NCBI GenBank assembly: GCA_041663045.1
Contig: JBAZRH010000002.1
Location: forward strand, 73,179 to 113,698
DNA length: 40,520 nt
Reading direction: 5' to 3'
Source: Minisyncoccota bacterium
Lineage (GTDB): Bacteria > Patescibacteriota > Minisyncoccia > Phycocordibacterales > GWA1-40-21
This document shows positions 9,981-35,058 of the stretch, in pieces. A program made the position numbers and the translations under genes. Position 1 is the stretch's first letter. Each line of letters starts with the position of its first letter. The notes under the pieces were generated by a model, which was not told the DNA's origin, ran no database searches, and saw only the letters and a program-made list of their open reading frames with translations.

Positions 9981-10037
9981 AGACTTAATTTTACTCCAGA
10001 AAAAGAAAAAGCAAAGAGTAGACAAGGAGAAAAAAAC

Positions 10038-10078
10038 AATGCAAAAGGCGGCGCACGAAGTGCGCCGCCTTTTGCATT
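10038..10078. terminator. 19-bp perfect hairpin with c-GAA-g triloop
   Basis: aatgcaaaaggcggcgcac-gaa-gtgcgccgccttttgcatt. Confidence 0.6.
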
Positions 10079-10096
10079 TCTTATTTCACTTCCACC

Positions 10097-10123
10097 CACG
10101 CATACTTTTTTGCTAAAAAGTTG
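10097..10123 (-). repeat. Partial inverted copy of the repeat family A sub-hairpin
   Basis: cacgcatacttttttgctaaaaagttg matches the reverse complement of the family A core at 25/27 positions; the two changes are one compensatory pair (A-T to C-G). Confidence 0.7.
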
Positions 10124-10132
10124 TCTGGGCCC

Positions 10133-10320
10133 TCCTTACAGGAGCAGTATACCTTTCACATTTTGAATACAAAACGTTCAAGGTCTTTCATTTGGGTCCC
10201 ATCCCAAATCTCAACCTCGGCTCGTCAGCCTCCGGCCGGTTGAGGTTAAAACAAAAAGTGCGTTCAGAACGCACTTTTTTGCTATTTAACCTCAATTCCT
10301 TACAGGAACAGTACACCTTT
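10133..10320. repeat. 24-bp direct repeats (10133-10156, 10297-10320) enclosing nested hairpins
   Basis: tccttacaggagcagtataccttt vs tccttacaggaacagtacaccttt (2 mismatches). Inside: ttgaggttaaa/tttaacctcaa enclosing aaaaagtgcgt-tcaga-acgcacttttt. Confidence 0.65.
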
Positions 10321-13576: not shown

Positions 13577-13690
13577 AGACTTGCGAGATGTCGTTTTTTT
13601 GGAGACTCTCGGAGCACGACTGGTGCGAGAGGGAGCAAATTTTTAGCAAAAAATTATGCGTGCTCCAAAAAGGCGACATCTCGCAAGTCT
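13577..13690. repeat. Repeat family A, copy 1: 78-bp core (13596-13673) inside a 17-bp perfect terminal inverted repeat
   Basis: Core identical to 15683-15760; arms agacttgcgagatgtcg / cgacatctcgcaagtct; starts 2 nt after the methyltransferase stop. Confidence 0.9.
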
Positions 13691-15642: not shown

Positions 15643-15672
15643 TTTCGTTATTTAATGTTTATAGGCGAGCGA

Positions 15673-15768
15673 AATAGTATTCTTTTTGGAGACTCTCGGA
15701 GCACGACTGGTGCGAGAGGGAGCAAATTTTTAGCAAAAAATTATGCGTGCTCCAAAAAGGATACTATT
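15673..15768. repeat. Repeat family A, copy 2: same 78-bp core (15683-15760) with a different outer stem
   Basis: Core identical to copy 1; arms aatagtat / atactatt; flanked by gcgagc on both sides; just after the metG stop. Confidence 0.9.
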
Positions 15769-15778
15769 GAGCGAGCCA

Positions 15779-17332
15779 CTACTCTACCCGTAAGAACAAC
15801 GGTTTCTCCGGATTTTTATCTTCTTTTATCAAAGTTAAAATCGCTTTTGAGGTTTCCGGCATTATTGGCAAAAGTTTAAGGGTAATTCCTCTCAAATGTG
15901 TGAGAAGATACACCAAATCTTTTTCTCCTCCAACTTTATCTGTCTTTATCTTTGCAAAAGGTTTTTCTTTTTGAATATATCCGTCAAGTGATTTTATATC
16001 CGCCCAGATTTCATCGCAATAATTTTTGATTTCAAATTTCTCAAGAAAATCTACTTTCATATCCGAAGACCAGAATTCAGAAGCTGTATCACCCACTTTC
16101 ACGCCATTTACCGTCGCCATTTTCATAATCCTACTCACCAGATTCCCCAAACCATTTGCAAGATTGGCATTGTAAGCTTCTTTGAAAGATTCAGCAGACA
16201 TCGGGCCATCTTCAAAAGTATTTATTTCTCTTGCGACAAAATATCGCAGTGCATCTGTGCCGTATTTTTGTATTAGCTCTACCGGACCGACGACATTGCC
16301 GATACTTTTGCTCATCTTCACTCCACCAGGGCCAGTAACAAAGCCATCTATCACGACCGTCTTTGAATTCGGCAAACCACAAGCCATAAGCATTGCTTGC
16401 CACATTGCAGACTGCTGGCGAAGATTGTCTTTTCCACAGTATTGCACCATACCGCCGGTATTTACATGCCATTTCTCATACTTCTTCATATCGCTCGGCC
16501 AGCCGATCGCCGAAACATAGTTTACAAGTGCATCAAACCAGACATACATTGTGTGTTCGCTATCTCCCGGCACTTCTATACCCCATGGCATTTTGCTCTT
16601 TAATCTTGAAATACTGAAATCCTGCAAACCTCTTTTCACAAAAGCTTTTATCTCATTGAATCTAAAATCTGGAATCACAAAATCCGGATTCTTCTCATAA
16701 TATGCCAAGAGTTTTTCGCCAAATGCGGAAAATCTAAAAAAGTAATTCTCTTCGTCGCGGATTTCAAGAGTGAGATTCGGATGATCAGGGCATTTGCCGT
16801 CTGTAAGGTCGGAATCTGTCTTTTCAAGCTCGCAACCGACGCAATATTTCGTTTGATAATTCTTTTTATAAATATAGCCATTCTTATCGCAAACTTTCCA
16901 AAAATCTTCGGCTGTTTTTATATGATTCTCGTCTGTCGTCCTTATGAAATTGCGAGTAATACCCTCTTCTTCTGTAAGTCCAAGAAGTTTTATAAGCTCT
17001 TTGAATTTGCCGGTGTAGAAATCGACAAATTCTTGTGGTGTCTGCCCAGCTTCTTTTGCTTTTTGAAAAATCTTTTGGCCATGCTCATCTGTGCCGGTAT
17101 TAAAAAACACCTCATACCCCGTGAGCTTTTTGTAGCGAGCGATAATATCCGCACGCACCATTTCAAGAGCATGCCCCATATGCGCTTCGGCATTTACATA
17201 CGGCAGAGTAGTAGTTATGTAGAAGTAGCCTTTGGCTCTTATAGTTCGACTTCGCTCGGACATCGTGCCCACATCAGAATGTGGTCGTGCCGCTCCTCGC
17301 TCGTCGAAATAGAATAATTTTTTCCCTTTCAT
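15779..17332 (-). CDS. metG: Methionine--tRNA ligase (short form), with a ~30-aa N-terminal insertion
   Basis: YITTTLPYVN..HMGH, GTDEHGQK, YCVGCE..CPDH knuckle, YVWFDAL, KMSKS. ATG overlaps the upstream TAA (TAATG). Confidence 0.96.
   Translation of the reverse strand: MKGKKLFYFDERGAARPHSDVGTMSERSRTIRAKGYFYITTTLPYVNAEAHMGHALEMVRADIIARYKKLTGYEVFFNTGTDEHGQKIFQKAKEAGQTPQEFVDFYTGKFKELIKLLGLTEEEGITRNFIRTTDENHIKTAEDFWKVCDKNGYIYKKNYQTKYCVGCELEKTDSDLTDGKCPDHPNLTLEIRDEENYFFRFSAFGEKLLAYYEKNPDFVIPDFRFNEIKAFVKRGLQDFSISRLKSKMPWGIEVPGDSEHTMYVWFDALVNYVSAIGWPSDMKKYEKWHVNTGGMVQYCGKDNLRQQSAMWQAMLMACGLPNSKTVVIDGFVTGPGGVKMSKSIGNVVGPVELIQKYGTDALRYFVAREINTFEDGPMSAESFKEAYNANLANGLGNLVSRIMKMATVNGVKVGDTASEFWSSDMKVDFLEKFEIKNYCDEIWADIKSLDGYIQKEKPFAKIKTDKVGGEKDLVYLLTHLRGITLKLLPIMPETSKAILTLIKEDKNPEKPLFLRVE
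17243..17311. repeat. Palindromic element in frame within the metG 5' end
   Basis: TTCGAC...GTCGAA arms, internal ccacATCAGAATgtgg hairpin (17269-17284), duplicated GAGCGA and GCACGA motifs. Confidence 0.65.
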
Positions 17333-30142: not shown

Positions 30143-31348
30143 ATGTTAGATCTTAAAGTGATAAACTCTGTTATAGAACAGATGGAACAAGAAAGGGGAA
30201 TACCTAAAGCAAAGATGCTTGAGGCTATTGAAATGGCCCTTGCTACTGCCTACAAAAAAGAATACGGTAAGAAAGGACAAATAATAAAATCAAAGTTAGA
30301 TATAAATAGCGGAAAAGCCGAGTTCGTGCAGGTTAAAATGGTTGTAGACAAAGATGCCGTCGTGATGAGAGAAGAAAAGAAGGATGAGAAAAAAGAGAAA
30401 GAAGACAAGAGGAGAAAAGGTTTTGATAAAGATGATGGAGAGAAAATAGAAATCAACGAAGAAACTGGAGAAAAGATAATCTATTATAATCCTGAACATC
30501 ATATATTTCTTGAAGATGCTAAGAAGATTAAGAGGGATGCCAAAATTGGTGATGAGCTTATCTTCCCTCTTGAAGAGAAGTCAGATTACGGAAGAATCGC
30601 CGCACAAACCGCAAAACAAGTCATCATACAAAAAATCAGAGAGGCTGAAAAAGTTTCTGTTTTCAACGAATATGGAGAAAAAGAAGGCCAAATAGTCACA
30701 GGTACCGTACAAAGAGCGGAGAGAGGAAATATTTTCGTAGATATGGGTAGAGCTACAGCTATTTTACCTTTCGAGGAACAAATACCTGGTGAAAAATACA
30801 TTCCTGGTGAAAGAATAAGGGGGTATCTATACAGAGTGGAAGAAACACCAAAAGGAATTTTCTTGAGATTATCAAGATCACATCCGAAATTCTTGGAAGA
30901 ATTGTTTAAAACAGAAACACCGGAACTTGGCGCAGGCACTGTGGAGATAAAAGCTATTGCAAGAGAAGCCGGCTCAAGATCAAAGATCGCTGTCGCCTCA
31001 AAAGACGAACATATTGATCCTGTCGGTTCACTTGTAGGACAAAGGGGTGTCAGAGTTTCTACTGTTATGTCGGAACTTGGCGGAGAAAAAATAGATATTA
31101 TTGAGTGGTCAGATGATGCAAAGAAATTTATTGAAGACGCCCTCTCACCGGCTCGGGTACTTAGTGTTTCAATAAATGAAGCAGAGAAGAAAACCACAGT
31201 AGAGGTTGCTGCCGATCAGCAGTCTCTCGCTATCGGAAAAGGAGGACAAAATGTCCGCCTTGCTGCTAAACTCACTGGTTGGAAAATAGACATAGTCGCG
31301 GTTGAGGGAGAATACGTCGAGGCCGAAGAAACAAAAGAAGAAAAGTAA
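30143..31348 (+). CDS. nusA: Transcription termination factor NusA
   Basis: GRIAAQTAKQVI.QKIREAE, S1 domain, LSRS, IAREAGSRSKIAV, GQRG.RV, ALSPA, AIGKGGQNVRLAAKLTGWKIDI. Confidence 0.98.
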   Translation: MLDLKVINSVIEQMEQERGIPKAKMLEAIEMALATAYKKEYGKKGQIIKSKLDINSGKAEFVQVKMVVDKDAVVMREEKKDEKKEKEDKRRKGFDKDDGEKIEINEETGEKIIYYNPEHHIFLEDAKKIKRDAKIGDELIFPLEEKSDYGRIAAQTAKQVIIQKIREAEKVSVFNEYGEKEGQIVTGTVQRAERGNIFVDMGRATAILPFEEQIPGEKYIPGERIRGYLYRVEETPKGIFLRLSRSHPKFLEELFKTETPELGAGTVEIKAIAREAGSRSKIAVASKDEHIDPVGSLVGQRGVRVSTVMSELGGEKIDIIEWSDDAKKFIEDALSPARVLSVSINEAEKKTTVEVAADQQSLAIGKGGQNVRLAAKLTGWKIDIVAVEGEYVEAEETKEEK

Positions 31349-31359
31349 GGACGAAATCC

Positions 31360-31394
31360 ATAAAAGGTGGGGCGCGAAGCGCCCCACCTTTTAT
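31360..31394. terminator. Terminator after nusA, c-GAA-g triloop
   Basis: ataaaaggtggggcgc-gaa-gcgccccaccttttat. Confidence 0.8.
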
Positions 31395-31478
31395 TATCTC
31401 TTGTTTGACTTTATTAATATATGGAATATAATTTAACTGTAAAAATCCTGATTATAAGACTTAAATCTAAATAAGACT

Positions 31479-32084
31479 ATGAAAAAAATATTGGTAGTGA
31501 TAACAATTTCACTAATTTTAAGTGGCTACGCCATGATAAGTAACGCTTCTACAATATCGTCAAATGAAACTTCTAGAGAAAATATAAAGAAAGCAATAGA
31601 CGATGCGGTTAATAAAATGAAAGCTGTTCAAGAAAAGAGAAATAACCTTGAGCAAAGAGTTGAAAAGATAATAGAGACAGCTCAAGATAAATTTATCAGG
31701 AATTTTGACGTTGCAATTATAAACTTAAACAGACTGTCAGCAAAAACTAGTGCGGTTATCACAAGAATTAGTGATTCTGGTAAAGATATAGAGGTTGAAA
31801 AATCACTTCTTGCATCATCTACAGTAACAATCGCAAAAGCAAAGACAGAATATGACACACTCAAAAATCTAGTATCGCAAACCGCCACAATCACACGAAA
31901 AGAAAAGAGAGTTGTTTTAGATTCCGTGAAGATACAAAGCGAGAAGACCAAGGAAGCGATAAAGGCGGCTCATGCAAGTATAGTAAATGTAATAAAGTCG
32001 CTTAAAATGAATCTTGCAAATGAAAGAGATGGGGCTGAGCAAAATGAATCGACTTCAAATTCTACATCAACAAACAATCAATAA
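31479..32084 (+). CDS. Secreted helical/coiled-coil hypothetical protein
   Basis: Signal peptide MKKILVVITISLIL..SNA followed by a long K/E-rich amphipathic region. Confidence 0.7.
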   Translation: MKKILVVITISLILSGYAMISNASTISSNETSRENIKKAIDDAVNKMKAVQEKRNNLEQRVEKIIETAQDKFIRNFDVAIINLNRLSAKTSAVITRISDSGKDIEVEKSLLASSTVTIAKAKTEYDTLKNLVSQTATITRKEKRVVLDSVKIQSEKTKEAIKAAHASIVNVIKSLKMNLANERDGAEQNESTSNSTSTNNQ

Positions 32085-32112
32085 CTTCATTAAAAGACAA
32101 TAAGATAATAAT

Positions 32113-32358
32113 ATGGATGTAAACAATACAAATAAAAATGGTTCGGGGGCGATAATAGGAGCTATAATCGTGATCGTTGTCCTTATCGCTGGGGGGTTCT
32201 ACTTCTACACCCAGAGAATAAACAAGCAGAGACAATTTGAAGCGATGAAAAATACGGTTACGCAATCTACTTCTGTAACAAAGGATATAGATTCTTTACT
32301 CATCGAGGCCTCGTCGACAGATCTAAATAATCTAGGCGATGGAATAGAAAATCTATAA
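32113..32358 (+). CDS. Small single-TM hypothetical protein
   Basis: GAIIGAIIVIVVLIAGGFYFY TM followed by a polar tail. Confidence 0.7.
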   Translation: MDVNNTNKNGSGAIIGAIIVIVVLIAGGFYFYTQRINKQRQFEAMKNTVTQSTSVTKDIDSLLIEASSTDLNNLGDGIENL

Positions 32359-32551
32359 AAGCTCGCTCGTATCACCATTTTTCATCAGTGTGCCTTCACC
32401 CCAAAGAAAATCATAGTCGCTGTTCTATACGAAAAATCAAGAACTCGCTGTATCAGAATACAGCTCAAACAACTTGATTTTTCTAAACAGCTCCTTGATT
32501 TTACTTGGGGTTCTCGGCAATGATGAAAAATGGTGATATTCGCTCGCTTAC
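32355..32551. repeat. Repeat family B, copy 1 (197 bp, nested hairpin, 18-bp terminal inverted repeat)
   Basis: About 95% identical (10 mismatches) to 33767-33963; arms tatcaccatttttcatca / tgatgaaaaatggtgata; ATCAGAAT apex at 32452-32459. Confidence 0.9.
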
Positions 32552-32639
32552 AGATTCCCCCACAGCAAAAATATTTATAAATCCTCGCTCGCTAACTTTT
32601 TTGCTTTTTTTCCGATTTTCAGCTACACTCATTTTTAAT

Positions 32640-33698
32640 ATGAATAAGAAAATATATAAAATCGTAGATACAAAAAAGCTTCCGGATTGCGAAGTTGAGA
32701 TAACAGCAGAGATTTCAGCCGAAAATCTTGAAAGCTATAAAGCAAAAGCCTTCAAGAAAATACAAGAAGTCGCTGAATTACCCGGCTTTAGAAAAGGCAA
32801 GGTCCCTGAAGCCATGCTCAAGGAAAAGATCGGCGAGATCGGCATCTTGGAAGACGCTGGTGAGATGGCTATAAACGACTGCGCCATAGAGATAATCGCC
32901 GAGTCAAAAGTCTCTCTTCTTGGTAGTCCAAATATTACAATATCAAAAATCGCTATCGGTGCCCCGCTTGAATTCAAGATAAAAGTCTCCACAATGCCGG
33001 AAGTAAAACTTGCCGACTATAAGAAAATCGCCAAAAAAGAAAATTCAAAAGAAGAAAAGATTGAAGAAGTTACAGAAAAGCAGATAAATGACACGATTGA
33101 GGAGATAAGAAAAATGTATGCCGAGCAGAATCATTCACATAAGCCGGGCGAGGAACACAAGGAAGGCGAAAATCTCCCCCTCCCCGAAATAAATGACGAA
33201 TTCGTAAAAAAACTTGGCGATTTCAAAGATGTTGCAGATTTCAAAGTAAAGCTCAAAGAAAATATCGCCAAAGAAAAGGAATTTAAGGCAAAAGACAAAA
33301 AGCGATTGACGATAGTTGAGAAAGTTATAGAAGACTCAAAGATAGAAATGCCGAAAGCTCTCGTGGAAAATGAGCTTTTCAAAATGCAGGCGCAATTTGA
33401 AGATGATATTTCAAAAATGGGTTTGAAACCGGAAGATTATTTGAAACATATTAAGAAAACTTGGGATGATTTGAAAAAAGAATGGCGACCGGATGCCGAA
33501 AAAAGAGCAAAATTGCAAATAGTTTTGCATCAGATTGCTACGAATGAAAAGCTTGAGGCCGACAAAGATATGGTAGAAAAAGAGACGAAGCATCTCGTAG
33601 AATATTATAAAGGTGCCGATCCAGAGAGAACCCGAGCCTATGTTGAAATGCAATTAATAAACGCTAAAGTCTGGAAATTTCTTGAGGAAGCCAAATAG
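32640..33698 (+). CDS. tig: Trigger factor, apparently lacking the FKBP PPIase domain
   Basis: GFRKGKVP ribosome-binding motif, then EINDEFVKKLG and the C-terminal domain (IEMPKALVENE, AEKRAKLQIVL). Start MNKKI (32640); the longer ORF start lies in repeat B. Confidence 0.9.
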   Translation: MNKKIYKIVDTKKLPDCEVEITAEISAENLESYKAKAFKKIQEVAELPGFRKGKVPEAMLKEKIGEIGILEDAGEMAINDCAIEIIAESKVSLLGSPNITISKIAIGAPLEFKIKVSTMPEVKLADYKKIAKKENSKEEKIEEVTEKQINDTIEEIRKMYAEQNHSHKPGEEHKEGENLPLPEINDEFVKKLGDFKDVADFKVKLKENIAKEKEFKAKDKKRLTIVEKVIEDSKIEMPKALVENELFKMQAQFEDDISKMGLKPEDYLKHIKKTWDDLKKEWRPDAEKRAKLQIVLHQIATNEKLEADKDMVEKETKHLVEYYKGADPERTRAYVEMQLINAKVWKFLEEAK

Positions 33699-33713
33699 CT
33701 TGTAGCTAGCCTG

Positions 33714-33745
33714 CCCCGAGATTCATTCTGATGAATTTTTCGGGG
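33714..33745. other. Hairpin after tig with the reverse ATCAGAAT apex
   Basis: ccccga-g-attcat-tctg-atgaat-ttt-tcgggg. Confidence 0.55.
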
Positions 33746-33766
33746 GGAGTTTCTTGAATCCGTAAA

Positions 33767-33963
33767 ATAAAAGCTCCCTCATATCACCATTTTTCATCAG
33801 TGTGCCTTCACCCCAAAGAAAATCATAGTCGCTGTTCTATACGAAAAATCAAGAACTCGCCACATCAGAATGTGTCTCAAACAACTTGATTTTTCTAAAC
33901 AGCTCTTTGATTTTACTTGGGGTTCTCGGCAATGATGAAAAATGGTGATATTCGCTCGCTTAC
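33767..33963. repeat. Repeat family B, copy 2
   Basis: Direct repeat of 32355-32551 at offset 1412; apical stem altered by three compensatory pair changes. Confidence 0.9.
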
Positions 33964-33976
33964 GGCAGAAATTTCC

Positions 33977-34009
33977 GTCTTTGCGAGTTAATCCGAAGCA
34001 ATCCAGTCT
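33977..34009 (+). repeat. REP-like element (GTC..TTGCG...GCAATCCAG type), left DGR border
   Basis: gtctttgcgagttaatccgaagcaatccagtct, directly adjacent to the RT stop. Confidence 0.5.
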
Positions 34010-35058
34010 CAATCCCCCAGTATTTTATCTATCTGCCTTTTTATCCCCTCTCCATTACAATACTTAAGCATACCCAAATAAGATTGGACGGCCTGTTTAA
34101 AATACTTTTCATCAACCAAACCTTTATCAAAATCCTCCTTTAATTTAACTAGCTTATTCAAAACCCTTTTCTTCGTCTTCGTCCTCAAAACCCTATAATG
34201 CGGAAGAGAAACATACCCTAGAAAATCCGTCCCTGAGATAATCTTACGCAAACTTATTTTTCTAGGATGTAGCTCTACCAAGAGTTTTTCTCTGAAAAAA
34301 TCTTGTATTCCTACAAGGCAACTTTTCAAAAACTCAAGATTATCAGCTAAAATAACAAAATCATCGCAATATCTAATATAATATCTGGCCTTAAGTCTAT
34401 GTTTTATAAACTGATCTAATTCGTTTAGATAGATATTTGAAAAAAGCTGGCTTGTAACATTACCAAGTGGCAAACCTTTGCCTTTTTCCTTTTCAAAAGA
34501 GCCGACAATCTTCTGAATTAAGTTCAATAAATCTCTATCCCCCACTTTTTTGCATATCAAATCCAGAAGTATTTTGTGGTCTATATTGTCAAAAAATTTT
34601 CTTATATCGCATTTCAATACATATCCGCTTCTCGTATAATTCCCAGAAACTTTCCTCGCAAACTCCTCAAATCTTTTAACCCCCGCATGCGTTCCCTTCA
34701 TCTCTCGTGAAGAATATGAATCAAAAATAAAAATAGGATTGAAAATCTGATATAATGCCTGATGCACGGCTTGATATAAAACCATATCCCTTATATCCGC
34801 CTTGTGTATTTCGCGAAGTTTTGGATCGCAAACTTTGAAAGCAAAGTATGGTCTGGGCTTCCACTGAAAAGTGGACAGCTCGCTATGCAAAGAAAAAATA
34901 TTTTCTTCAAGATTCAATTCAAAATCAGCCACTTCTTTTTTTGACCTTTTGCCCTTAGAAAACTTCCGCCAAGCCTTTAATAAATTTTTAATAGATATTA
35001 CATCACAAAAACTACAACTATGACGCCCCCCCCCCGCACGTGTTCGCAAAACTCCCAT
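34009..35058 (-). CDS. DGR reverse transcriptase
   Basis: ISIKNLLKAW..F.KGKR, CDIRKFFDNIDH, GLPLGNVTSQLFSNIYLNELD (GxxxSQ), YIRYCDDFVI, DFLGY; no endonuclease or maturase tail. Confidence 0.93.
   Translation of the reverse strand: MGVLRTRAGGGRHSCSFCDVISIKNLLKAWRKFSKGKRSKKEVADFELNLEENIFSLHSELSTFQWKPRPYFAFKVCDPKLREIHKADIRDMVLYQAVHQALYQIFNPIFIFDSYSSREMKGTHAGVKRFEEFARKVSGNYTRSGYVLKCDIRKFFDNIDHKILLDLICKKVGDRDLLNLIQKIVGSFEKEKGKGLPLGNVTSQLFSNIYLNELDQFIKHRLKARYYIRYCDDFVILADNLEFLKSCLVGIQDFFREKLLVELHPRKISLRKIISGTDFLGYVSLPHYRVLRTKTKKRVLNKLVKLKEDFDKGLVDEKYFKQAVQSYLGMLKYCNGEGIKRQIDKILGD

Follow-up and report, generated by a model that had tools for sequence, protein, structure and literature searches.

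Hairpin repeats on both sides of tig in an ultra-small Minisyncoccota genome are members of a lineage-specific superfamily of non-coding elements at gene ends

Within the 40,520-nt stretch of Minisyncoccota DNA analyzed here (GenBank assembly GCA_041663045.1, contig JBAZRH010000002.1, positions 73,179–113,698; called the window throughout), the trigger factor gene tig is enclosed by two nearly identical 197-nt repeats, the second of which lies next to the reverse transcriptase (RT) gene of a diversity-generating retroelement (DGR). Such an arrangement raises the question of whether the repeats make tig mobile, serve the DGR, or belong to a system that has its own reasons to occupy the ends of genes. 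We found that both repeats are members of a multicopy superfamily of hairpins, patchily distributed among related genomes, which is positioned at stop codons, shows covariation and strand asymmetry, and places different subtypes at the ends of the same genes. The two repeats are probably independent members of this superfamily of non-coding, structure-defined mosaic hairpins, which would spread and exchange parts through their antisense form. Genomes of the Candidate Phyla Radiation (CPR; Patescibacteria) have undergone extreme reduction, and most accounts present them as containing few repeats and little mobile DNA. The genome concerned (G000; ultra-small, CPR/Paceibacteria-type) comprises 724 kb in two contigs (C1 and C2), has 38% G+C and is 97.5% complete.

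The two repeats and their setting

The features of the locus, in window coordinates, are:
32355–32551, minus strand (the better-folding one): family-B hairpin element, copy 1 (repeat search, alignment, folding, motif scan)
32359–32369, read on the plus strand: copy 1 basal motif AAGCTCGCTCG, which pairs with 32539–32549
32539–32551, no strand assigned: copy 1 basal motif TTCGCTCGCTTAC (motif search, scan)
32447–32464, no strand assigned: copy 1 apical stem-loop GCTGTAT-CAGA-ATACAGC, with seven clustered differences, in a version unique to copy 1
32552–32596, no strand assigned: 3'-terminal remnant of a type III element (...CCACAGCAAAAATATTTATAAATCC) that includes a separate basal motif, TCGCTCGCTAAC, at 32585–32596 (motif and network comparison)
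32640–33698, plus strand: tig, encoding a 352-aa trigger factor without the peptidyl-prolyl isomerase domain (Pfam Trigger_N and Trigger_C), single copy in its ancestral position
33714–33747, plus strand: ordinary terminator-like hairpin of tig, CCCCGAGATTCAT...ATGAATTTTTCGGGGGG (read from the sequence)
33767–33963, minus strand: family-B hairpin element, copy 2 (repeat search, alignment, folding)
33859–33876, no strand assigned: copy 2 apical stem-loop GCCACAT-CAGA-ATGTGTC, with one C.T mismatch
34009–35058, minus strand: DGR RT (Pfam RVT_1), a neighbor rather than a part of the element

The repeat search and the pairwise alignment reproduced what a sequence-only reading of this DNA had described, i.e., direct repeats of 197 nt (95% identical) with a spacing of 1412 nt and 10 mismatches, the second of them 45 nt from the RT stop. 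Two of the mismatches fall in the 5' basal motif, one (C/T at 32492) in the 3' arm, and seven in the 18-nt apical stem-loop, where three neighboring pairs are altered on both sides, as had also been noticed; the seventh change turns the C.T mismatch of copy 2 into a C-G pair and thereby makes the apical stem of copy 1 perfect. Since the changes are found in copy 1 only, and the genomic copies C1:318545 and C1:329905 share the copy 2 apex, the cluster is best counted as roughly one event, possibly gene conversion by a donor that has since been lost, or palindrome (quasipalindrome) correction at the DNA level. These changes agree with selection for pairing and are no proof of it by themselves.

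On the plus strand the repeat was predicted to fold into a single long hairpin (−81.8 kcal/mol, z = −11.8, with none of 200 shuffles as good), and the fold of the minus strand reached −90.1 kcal/mol. The hairpin measures about 90 bp in each copy, and its terminal inverted arms extend over 22–32 nt; the long hairpin proposed earlier stands.

An assembly artefact was ruled out by junction-spanning unitigs and by the depths of the two apex versions. All four junctions between flank and repeat are spanned by unitigs with unique words in a source-like groundwater metagenome (30595–32399, 32525–33811, and 33934–35035); the copy 1 apex region has a depth of about 24x, i.e., that of single-copy sequence, and unitigs with the copy 2-type apex reach about 74x, which fits three genomic copies of this version. 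In a second sample, from a wetland, the 3' end of tig and copy 2 were present with zero differences. The depth of the tig unitig was 23.7, which we take as inside the spread of its neighbors (24.9–31.2).

On the plus strand, copy 1 begins directly behind the TAA stop (32356–32358) of an 81-aa open reading frame (ORF; 32113–32358). In relatives, this 81-aa gene is followed by an ordinary GC-rich terminator, then by TTTTGCATTTTT...TTTTCAGCTAAACTC and the start of tig; G000 has copy 1 and the type III remnant in place of the terminator stem, and behind them it retains the ancestral terminator's T-tract and the leader of tig. As the truncated 3' end of a type III element lies directly behind copy 1, the site upstream of tig must have been occupied at least twice. 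Copy 2 is flanked by the tig terminator on one side and by the convergent RT gene (its 3' end) on the other; on the minus strand it follows 45 nt behind the RT stop, and then comes CTTTTATTTTAC. Tig merely sits between two occupied sites. No B element was found beside tig in any of the 24 genus genomes with this gene, and no B core at any of 52 metagenomic tig loci. A role as DGR accessory element was likewise rejected, as the position next to the DGR RT is not conserved in relatives: neither the basal motif nor the B core was present within 300 nt downstream of the RT at the approximately 14 loci read (of 17 found) in the genus, including the two closest (67–68% identity).

Between copy 2 and the RT stop (33977–34009), we also observed a small repeat (...CTGGATTGCTTCGGATTAACTCGCAAAGACGG) that recurs at loci L050, L098, and L029. 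Its relatives (CCTGGATTGC...CCTCGCAAAGAC) are situated downstream of tig in genome G006, next to a B element in G009, and downstream of an RT in G015, and it looks like a separate, genus-wide family resembling repetitive extragenic palindromes (REP).

A superfamily of mosaic hairpins at stop codons

Self-BLAST of the genome connected 76 repeat loci (10.6 kb, about 1.5% of the sequence) into one component, which takes in the window regions 13596–13673 and 15656–15781 (the "family A" of the sequence-only reading) and the elements trailing tRNA genes. At least 25 complete elements, each composed of a motif, a complementary stem and a second motif, were found in G000 by a scan that required CTCNCTC and TCRNTCR. 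B copies of relatives, detected by BLAST or with a covariance model, have the same motifs with a few substitutions. G000 contains at least five B copies or fragments; the members outside the tig locus that are referred to below are:
C1:318545–318705: B copy, 93% identical
C1:329773–330049: B copy carrying an insertion
C1:286346: 5' half of a B copy
C2:239626 and C1:45170: 3' fragments of B copies
window 13596–13673, plus strand: type I core member with its own 17-bp outer stem and without the basal motif (self-BLAST network)
window 15656–15781, minus strand: type I core member with basal motifs GGCTCGCTC ... TCGCTCGCCTAT, directly after a TAG stop (motif scan)

All B copies have AAGCTCGCTC(G/A) as their left and TTCGCTCGCTTAC as their right end motif, and the arms inside these motifs are wholly different between copies yet paired (ATCACCATTTTTCATC/GATGAAAAATGGTGAT in copies 1 and 2 vs. 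CCCCGCCATTTTCTCACC/GGTGAGAAAATGGCGGGG in C1:318545). Elsewhere in the genome the same end motifs bracket quite different hairpin cores, of which four kinds were distinguished: type I (a three-way junction of about 65 nt), type II (about 130 nt), type III (type I in an extra shell), and type B (a long hairpin of roughly 100 nt). The common plan of the elements combines a basal helix that is conserved (AAGCTCGCTCG ... TTCGCTCGCTT), an outer stem that covaries fast, a core that can be exchanged, and a start near a stop codon.

The mosaic character is best seen in the combinations of these parts. The 78-nt type I core is 100% identical between 13596–13673 and 15656–15781 and stands there in two different shells, the shell ATCACCATTTTTC of B copies 1 and 2 also encloses a type II element, a type II element joined to a B fragment forms a 262-nt composite at two loci, and at C2:141941–142136 a complete element with its own basal motifs lies within the loop of another one. 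Two more orphan 3' motifs were noted beside this nested pair. A module of about 85 nt (CCTTACAGGAGCAGTA(C/T)ACCTTTCACATTTTGA...GGTCTTTCATTTGGGTCCC...CCCAAATCTCAAC) was seen to replace one hairpin in otherwise different elements, which adds a further layer of nesting (window 10020–10221, i.e., C2:83198–83399; C1:339982–340249; C1:115776–115999). Another observation concerns a solo site, AAATAG-GCTCGCTCGCTTAC, on the minus strand of C1:219392–219408, directly behind a stop codon; the two basal motifs are fused in it without a hairpin, and it may represent an empty or excised site.

As for the placement, 17 of the 25 elements start 1–3 nt past the TAA or TAG of a co-oriented ORF (81–854 aa), whereas fewer than two such starts are estimated by chance even with insertions restricted to intergenic DNA. 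These stop codons are native, i.e., the C-termini of the 81-aa protein, FtsZ and LepA match their orthologs, and the genes concerned include housekeeping ones (e.g., ftsZ, lepA, comM, and the gene upstream of tig). Several other loci have the upstream gene's ordinary terminator just behind the element, which places such elements inside the 3' untranslated region.

The B core was detected with the covariance model in 9 of 53 family genomes, representing three genera, with 3–10 copies each. The sites at ftsA, recG, and tig are occupied in some species and have plain terminators in others, and orthologous gene ends may be occupied by different subtypes (relatives are given by genome number):
ftsA: plain terminator in G000; B-type in G009 and G016
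recG: no element in G000; B-type in G016
lepA: type III in G000; B-type in G009 and G010
ftsZ: type II in G000; B-type in G016
153-aa protein gene (x153): type I in G000; B-type in G013

Copies of G009 and G016 are about 94% identical, and the neighboring FtsA proteins are roughly three-quarters identical in the stretches compared by eye. In another genus (g4), B cores lack the basal motif and are enclosed by perfect, copy-specific outer stems of 20–27 bp. The exact 12-mer TCGCTCGCTTAC occurs 8 times in G000, whereas none of 300 other genomes from the order has more than two copies, a frequency that does not exceed that of the reversed control; an order-wide spread of this 12-mer was thus rejected, and the motif is lineage-specific.

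Apart from these repeats, about 27 paralogous genes form an array in G000 (C1:161566–196664, 206679, and 238831–241869), and their common conserved 3' part encodes a phosphoenolpyruvate-utilizing-enzyme mobile domain.

Covariation, basal helix and strand preference

The analysis of covariation used an alignment of 13 B-type elements, drawn from five species of the genus. In their consensus hairpin, 94.7% of cells pair and 23 of the 47 pairs have changes on both sides, a number reached by none of 500 shuffles; when the partners were slid by 1–3 columns, just 4–7 compensatory pairs remained. The compensatory pattern, from which selection on the structure had been suspected on the strength of two copies, did not disappear with more of them, and a conserved hairpin under selection is supported.

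Covariation extends to the ends of the elements. The middle letters of the two motifs change as Watson–Crick partners (CTC-G-CTC with TCG-C-TCG in 12 of 25, C-G in 6, A-T in 4, exceptions in 3), and in the element listing the letters outside the motifs do likewise (AAG pairs with CTT, GG with CC). It follows that the ends form a basal helix, AAGC/GCTT plus GC/GC, whose parts are separated by two 2x2 pyrimidine–pyrimidine mismatches. The constant flanks had at first been read as a target-site duplication of TCGCTC, which was rejected because the variable middle bases covary as partners and are not identical letters. On the complementary strand, the helix reads AAGCGAGCGAA/CGAGCGAGCTT, i.e., two CGAG/CGAG boxes with tandem G.A/A.G mismatches ((CGAG)2). 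In RNA, this tandem G.A arrangement is stable and often bound by proteins. A CGAG...CGAG box also closes the apex of B copies in other species, again with covariation (CGAG-UGCAA-CGAG in G009 vs. CGAA-UACAA-UGAG in G016). Pairing outside the basal helix, as an inverted target duplication would give, was not significant (−5.5 kcal/mol for own flanks vs. −4.9 kcal/mol for swapped ones, 27 of 300 permutations being as good); copy 1 and C1:144271 do extend their pairing past it.

The two strands of the elements are not equivalent. The strand antisense to the upstream gene was predicted to be the more stable one in all 25 elements of G000, by 12.4 kcal/mol on average (G.U pairs 87 vs. 23), and in all 13 B-type elements. 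For the consensus structures, the energies were −33.7 (antisense) vs. −21.4 kcal/mol (sense) in type B, with G.U counts of 51 vs. 18, and −54.1 vs. −40.1 kcal/mol in type I. A replication-linked mutation bias was rejected as the source of this asymmetry, because the elements occur in both orientations relative to the GC skew (about 15 to 10). The tail behind the hairpin is T-rich on the antisense side (mean of 5.1 T in 10 positions vs. 2.7 on the sense side), with at least five T in 14 of 25 antisense and 3 of 25 sense tails. Furthermore, the tRNA-trailing relatives show the same loops (CAGCAG and GACG) on the tRNA strand, which is the counterpart of the favored one. A scan with consensus promoters and terminators gave nothing above shuffles, and no fixed −10 box was seen upstream on the antisense strand.

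Spread, possible role and comparison with known repeats

What we hold most firmly about the history of these elements is that the family would have spread and exchanged modules within the genus. With less assurance, we propose that the antisense strand (relative to the upstream gene), in single-stranded form as either RNA or DNA, is what would be recognized, and that the GA-rich basal helix is probably a handle for a trans-acting protein. Our least confident suggestion concerns the elements in place: the hairpin with its T-rich tail may work as a strand-specific transcription stop or as an RNA 3'-end protector, in which case copy 2 would serve the DGR operon as such a stop or protector on the antisense strand, and on the sense strand the same hairpin would form a weaker-based stem in the 3' untranslated region. 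We infer, and do not observe, both the function (terminator, insulator or RNA stability element) and the mechanism of the spread.

Several points weigh against this proposal. Transcription of the elements and the choice of the active strand are presumed, and at the several loci with a downstream terminator the sense strand is certainly transcribed, which is awkward for a function of the antisense RNA. As the scan fixed CTCNCTC and TCRNTCR, the invariance of these letters among the 25 elements is partly an ascertainment effect. No mobilizing enzyme was identified in G000: there is no Y1/HUH transposase (PF01797) in this nearly complete genome, its tyrosine recombinase is a single one of Xer type, and the RTs comprise one full-length protein and one fragment. 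Neither is any candidate enzyme common to all B-bearing genomes, as G016 has no DGR-type RT (E ≤ 1e-30) and G000 no Y1. The flanks in the element listing show no target-site duplication, and the metagenome contigs provided no strain-level pair of filled and empty sites, the closest tig being 80% identical; an empty-site comparison between G028 and G033 gave no DNA match.

With respect to the candidate enzymes, a second partial RT-like frame (C2:8505–9053), 40% identical to the DGR RT over residues 15–201 and interrupted by one in-frame TAA, was noted in G000; it probably represents the remains of a decayed DGR. Many genomes of the genus other than G000 encode 1–5 proteins each of about 190–260 aa (mostly about 210–236 aa in the eight read) with a Y1_Tnp match in the C-terminal half (…CLMPNHFHLL…). 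The Y1-like genes of G009, G010, G013, and G016 (loci L078–L085) are mostly not flanked by hairpin motifs, with single motif-like hits within a few kb of some of them. A mobilizer of the IS200 type or a REP-associated tyrosine transposase (RAYT) was rejected, being missing from G000 and unlinked to the motifs in relatives.

Other explanations have to be set against the spread of the family through an antisense form. The elements could be non-mobile, cis-acting RNA structures of gene 3' ends (terminators, insulators or stability elements), inherited vertically and kept similar by gene conversion, for which the precise placement at native stops, the occupation of the same gene ends in several species, the T-rich antisense tail, and the canonical terminators replaced or adjoined would speak. 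We regard this as unlikely, considering the patchy distribution (9 of 53 genomes), the variation in presence and subtype at orthologous sites, the nested and composite copies, and the cores that are 94–100% identical beside genes just 70–80% identical in protein; moreover, a basal motif of about 11 nt is too short to anchor ordinary gene conversion. It is quite unlikely that they are attC-like DNA sites, the folded antisense strand of which would be cut and joined by the sole tyrosine recombinase (Xer-type) with an exchange of hairpin cores. Such sites would explain the hairpin directly behind the ORF stop, the paired conserved ends around a variable middle, the preferential folding of the bottom strand, the exchanged cores and shells, and the solo site TAG-GCTCGCTCGCTTAC, which resembles an empty one, but neither R''/R' core sequences (RYYYAAC/GTTRRRY) nor a cassette array nor an orientation bias relative to replication was found, and G000 has no integron integrase (TIGR02249 gives 122 bits, below its cut-off of 265, and XerD/XerA match best).

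We assign a low probability to retrocopies resembling short interspersed nuclear elements (SINEs), in which antisense RNA from master copies (e.g., the tRNA-trailing ones) would be reverse-transcribed from A-rich gene ends (…AAATAA) pairing with the U-rich 3' tail. The antisense G.U pairs, which are kept at the level of the family even where the sense strand alone should be transcribed, the loops shared with the tRNA strand of tRNA-trailing relatives, the U-rich tail, the junction at an A-rich stop codon, and the presence of an RT without a transposase in G000 are in line with it; on the other side, G016 has three B copies and no DGR-type RT at E ≤ 1e-30, target-site duplications are absent, the differences between copies have no adenine-specific pattern, and no DGR RT is known to use other RNAs. 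Hardly probable is the view that the apparent covariation reflects palindrome maintenance in DNA (arm-to-arm template switching or quasipalindrome correction) instead of selection on a folded molecule. The seven clustered changes that perfect the copy 1 apex and the perfect, copy-specific outer stems of genus g4 (20–27 bp) would suit it, but the basal helix keeps its tandem mismatches, and internal loops and bulges are likewise conserved instead of being "corrected", and a G.U strand asymmetry (87 vs. 23) is unexpected from a symmetric process. Finally, the idea with which this locus had first been approached, that direct repeats make tig mobile or excisable (as a composite transposon, a cassette, or by recombination-driven deletion or amplification), is extremely improbable. 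Two 197-nt repeats of 95% identity in direct orientation around one gene are formally a substrate for RecA-mediated deletion; however, tig stands behind the same 81-aa gene in relatives that lack the repeats, with no B core in any of the 24 genus genomes and 52 metagenomic loci, its read depth shows neither amplification nor deletion (23.7 vs. 24.9–31.2), the two copies differ in context (copy 1 directly behind a stop codon, copy 2 behind the tig terminator), and most members of the family are solitary.

An extended form of the proposed spread through the antisense strand is doubtful but worth stating, i.e., that the elements may constitute a CPR-specific, protein-less mobile module guided by structure, which would home to the 3' boundary of genes (the stop codon) by its antisense single strand, use the (CGAG)2 helix as a handle for a host protein, and swap cores and shells. 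If so, it would be a dispersed system of integron-attC-like or SINE-like kind, which, together with the tRNA-trailing relatives, remodels the 3' ends of many housekeeping genes in genomes where mobile DNA is otherwise nearly absent. None of the known classes of repeats readily explains the exact placement at stop codons, the structure selected on the strand opposite to the gene, or the free swapping of cores and shells. If the elements are strand-specific terminators or insulators, they bear on the control of antisense and read-through transcription in ultra-small genomes; if they move without a dedicated enzyme, they would represent an unrecognized route of DNA or RNA mobility. For annotation, it should be stressed that the repeats flanking tig are not to be taken as a transposon or as a part of the DGR.

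The repeat family is apparently undescribed: full-text literature searches brought up no account of such repeats in CPR bacteria, and Rfam 15 gave no match at or above the gathering threshold in the whole window (a permissive search returned one sub-threshold long-hairpin match, to a plant miRNA precursor, with 29.9 bits vs. 249). The nearest analogs in a review of small bacterial repeats are SPRITE, ERIC, REP/BIME, RPE, and miniature inverted-repeat transposable elements (MITEs) (PMC3184786). The repeats are not classical MITEs, REPs or attC sites. They share with MITEs such as Correia, RUP, and Nezha a non-autonomous, multicopy, foldable nature and a length below 300 bp (197 nt; in G000, at least five B copies, counting fragments, and 25 complete members of the superfamily), and they also vary in presence between species; the likeness proposed earlier holds in this loose sense. 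MITEs, however, have conserved terminal inverted repeats matching an insertion sequence and variable target-site duplications, and the reverse is found here, with constant pairing flanks and variable inverted repeats: arms differ among copies sharing a core (ATCACCATTTTTC, CCCCGCCATTTTCTC, and ATTCTCAATTTTCT), the end motifs CTCNCTC/TCGNTCG covary as base pairs (G-C, C-G, A-T) and are not identical repeats, no cognate transposase was found, and no longer element with these ends (i.e., a parental insertion sequence) appeared in the genome self-BLAST. AttC sites, too, are hairpins defined by structure and not by sequence, vary in length, and follow an ORF immediately, the stop codon being in or at their first conserved box; their conserved ends pair, and the bottom strand folds better. 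They differ in their RYYYAAC/GTTRRRY boxes, intI and arrays, all absent here, where the ends read TAAAAGCTCGCTC ... TCGCTCGCTTAC and the elements are dispersed behind housekeeping genes.

With these distinctions, the family may be said to resemble REP/BIME, ERIC or SPRITE elements. REPs and BIMEs are also extragenic hairpins at gene 3' ends, form mosaics of modules, and are recognized as single-stranded structures with conserved mismatches, but they are 20–40 nt long and depend on RAYT (TnpA-REP); G000 has no Y1/HUH gene and no PF01797 match, and the Y1-like genes of G009, G010, G013, and G016 are not flanked by the motifs. The ERIC/IRU and YPAL-type imperfect palindromes of Enterobacteriaceae (about 127–168 bp) have documented effects on mRNA stability in the case of ERIC, together with conserved terminal inverted repeats and TA duplications (PMC3184786). 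Like the elements described here, they are long imperfect palindromes at gene 3' ends and in transcripts, with compensatory changes and copy numbers varying between species; in contrast to ERIC, the inverted repeats are variable in our elements, duplications were not observed, and the position is fixed to the stop codon. Within G000 itself, the tRNA-trailing elements and an in-frame hairpin of metG belong to the same self-BLAST network as family B and share with it the loops YAGCAR and GACG on the same relative strand as well as (CGAG)2; the tRNA-trailing elements close on a duplicate of the tRNA 3' end and the metG hairpin is positioned in frame within its gene, whereas the GCTCGCTC platform behind the stops of protein genes is what closes family B and its kin. 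SPRITEs are likewise small, protein-less, multicopy elements scattered at gene ends, with a stable hairpin followed by a T-rich tail, a combination (hairpin, then U-tract) read here from the sequence as antisense T-rich tails in 14 of 25 elements. There is no sequence relation between the two, and the terminator-like strand is here antisense to the gene whose stop is touched; our elements moreover differ from SPRITEs in having a conserved GA-rich basal helix and exchangeable cores of 65–190 nt.

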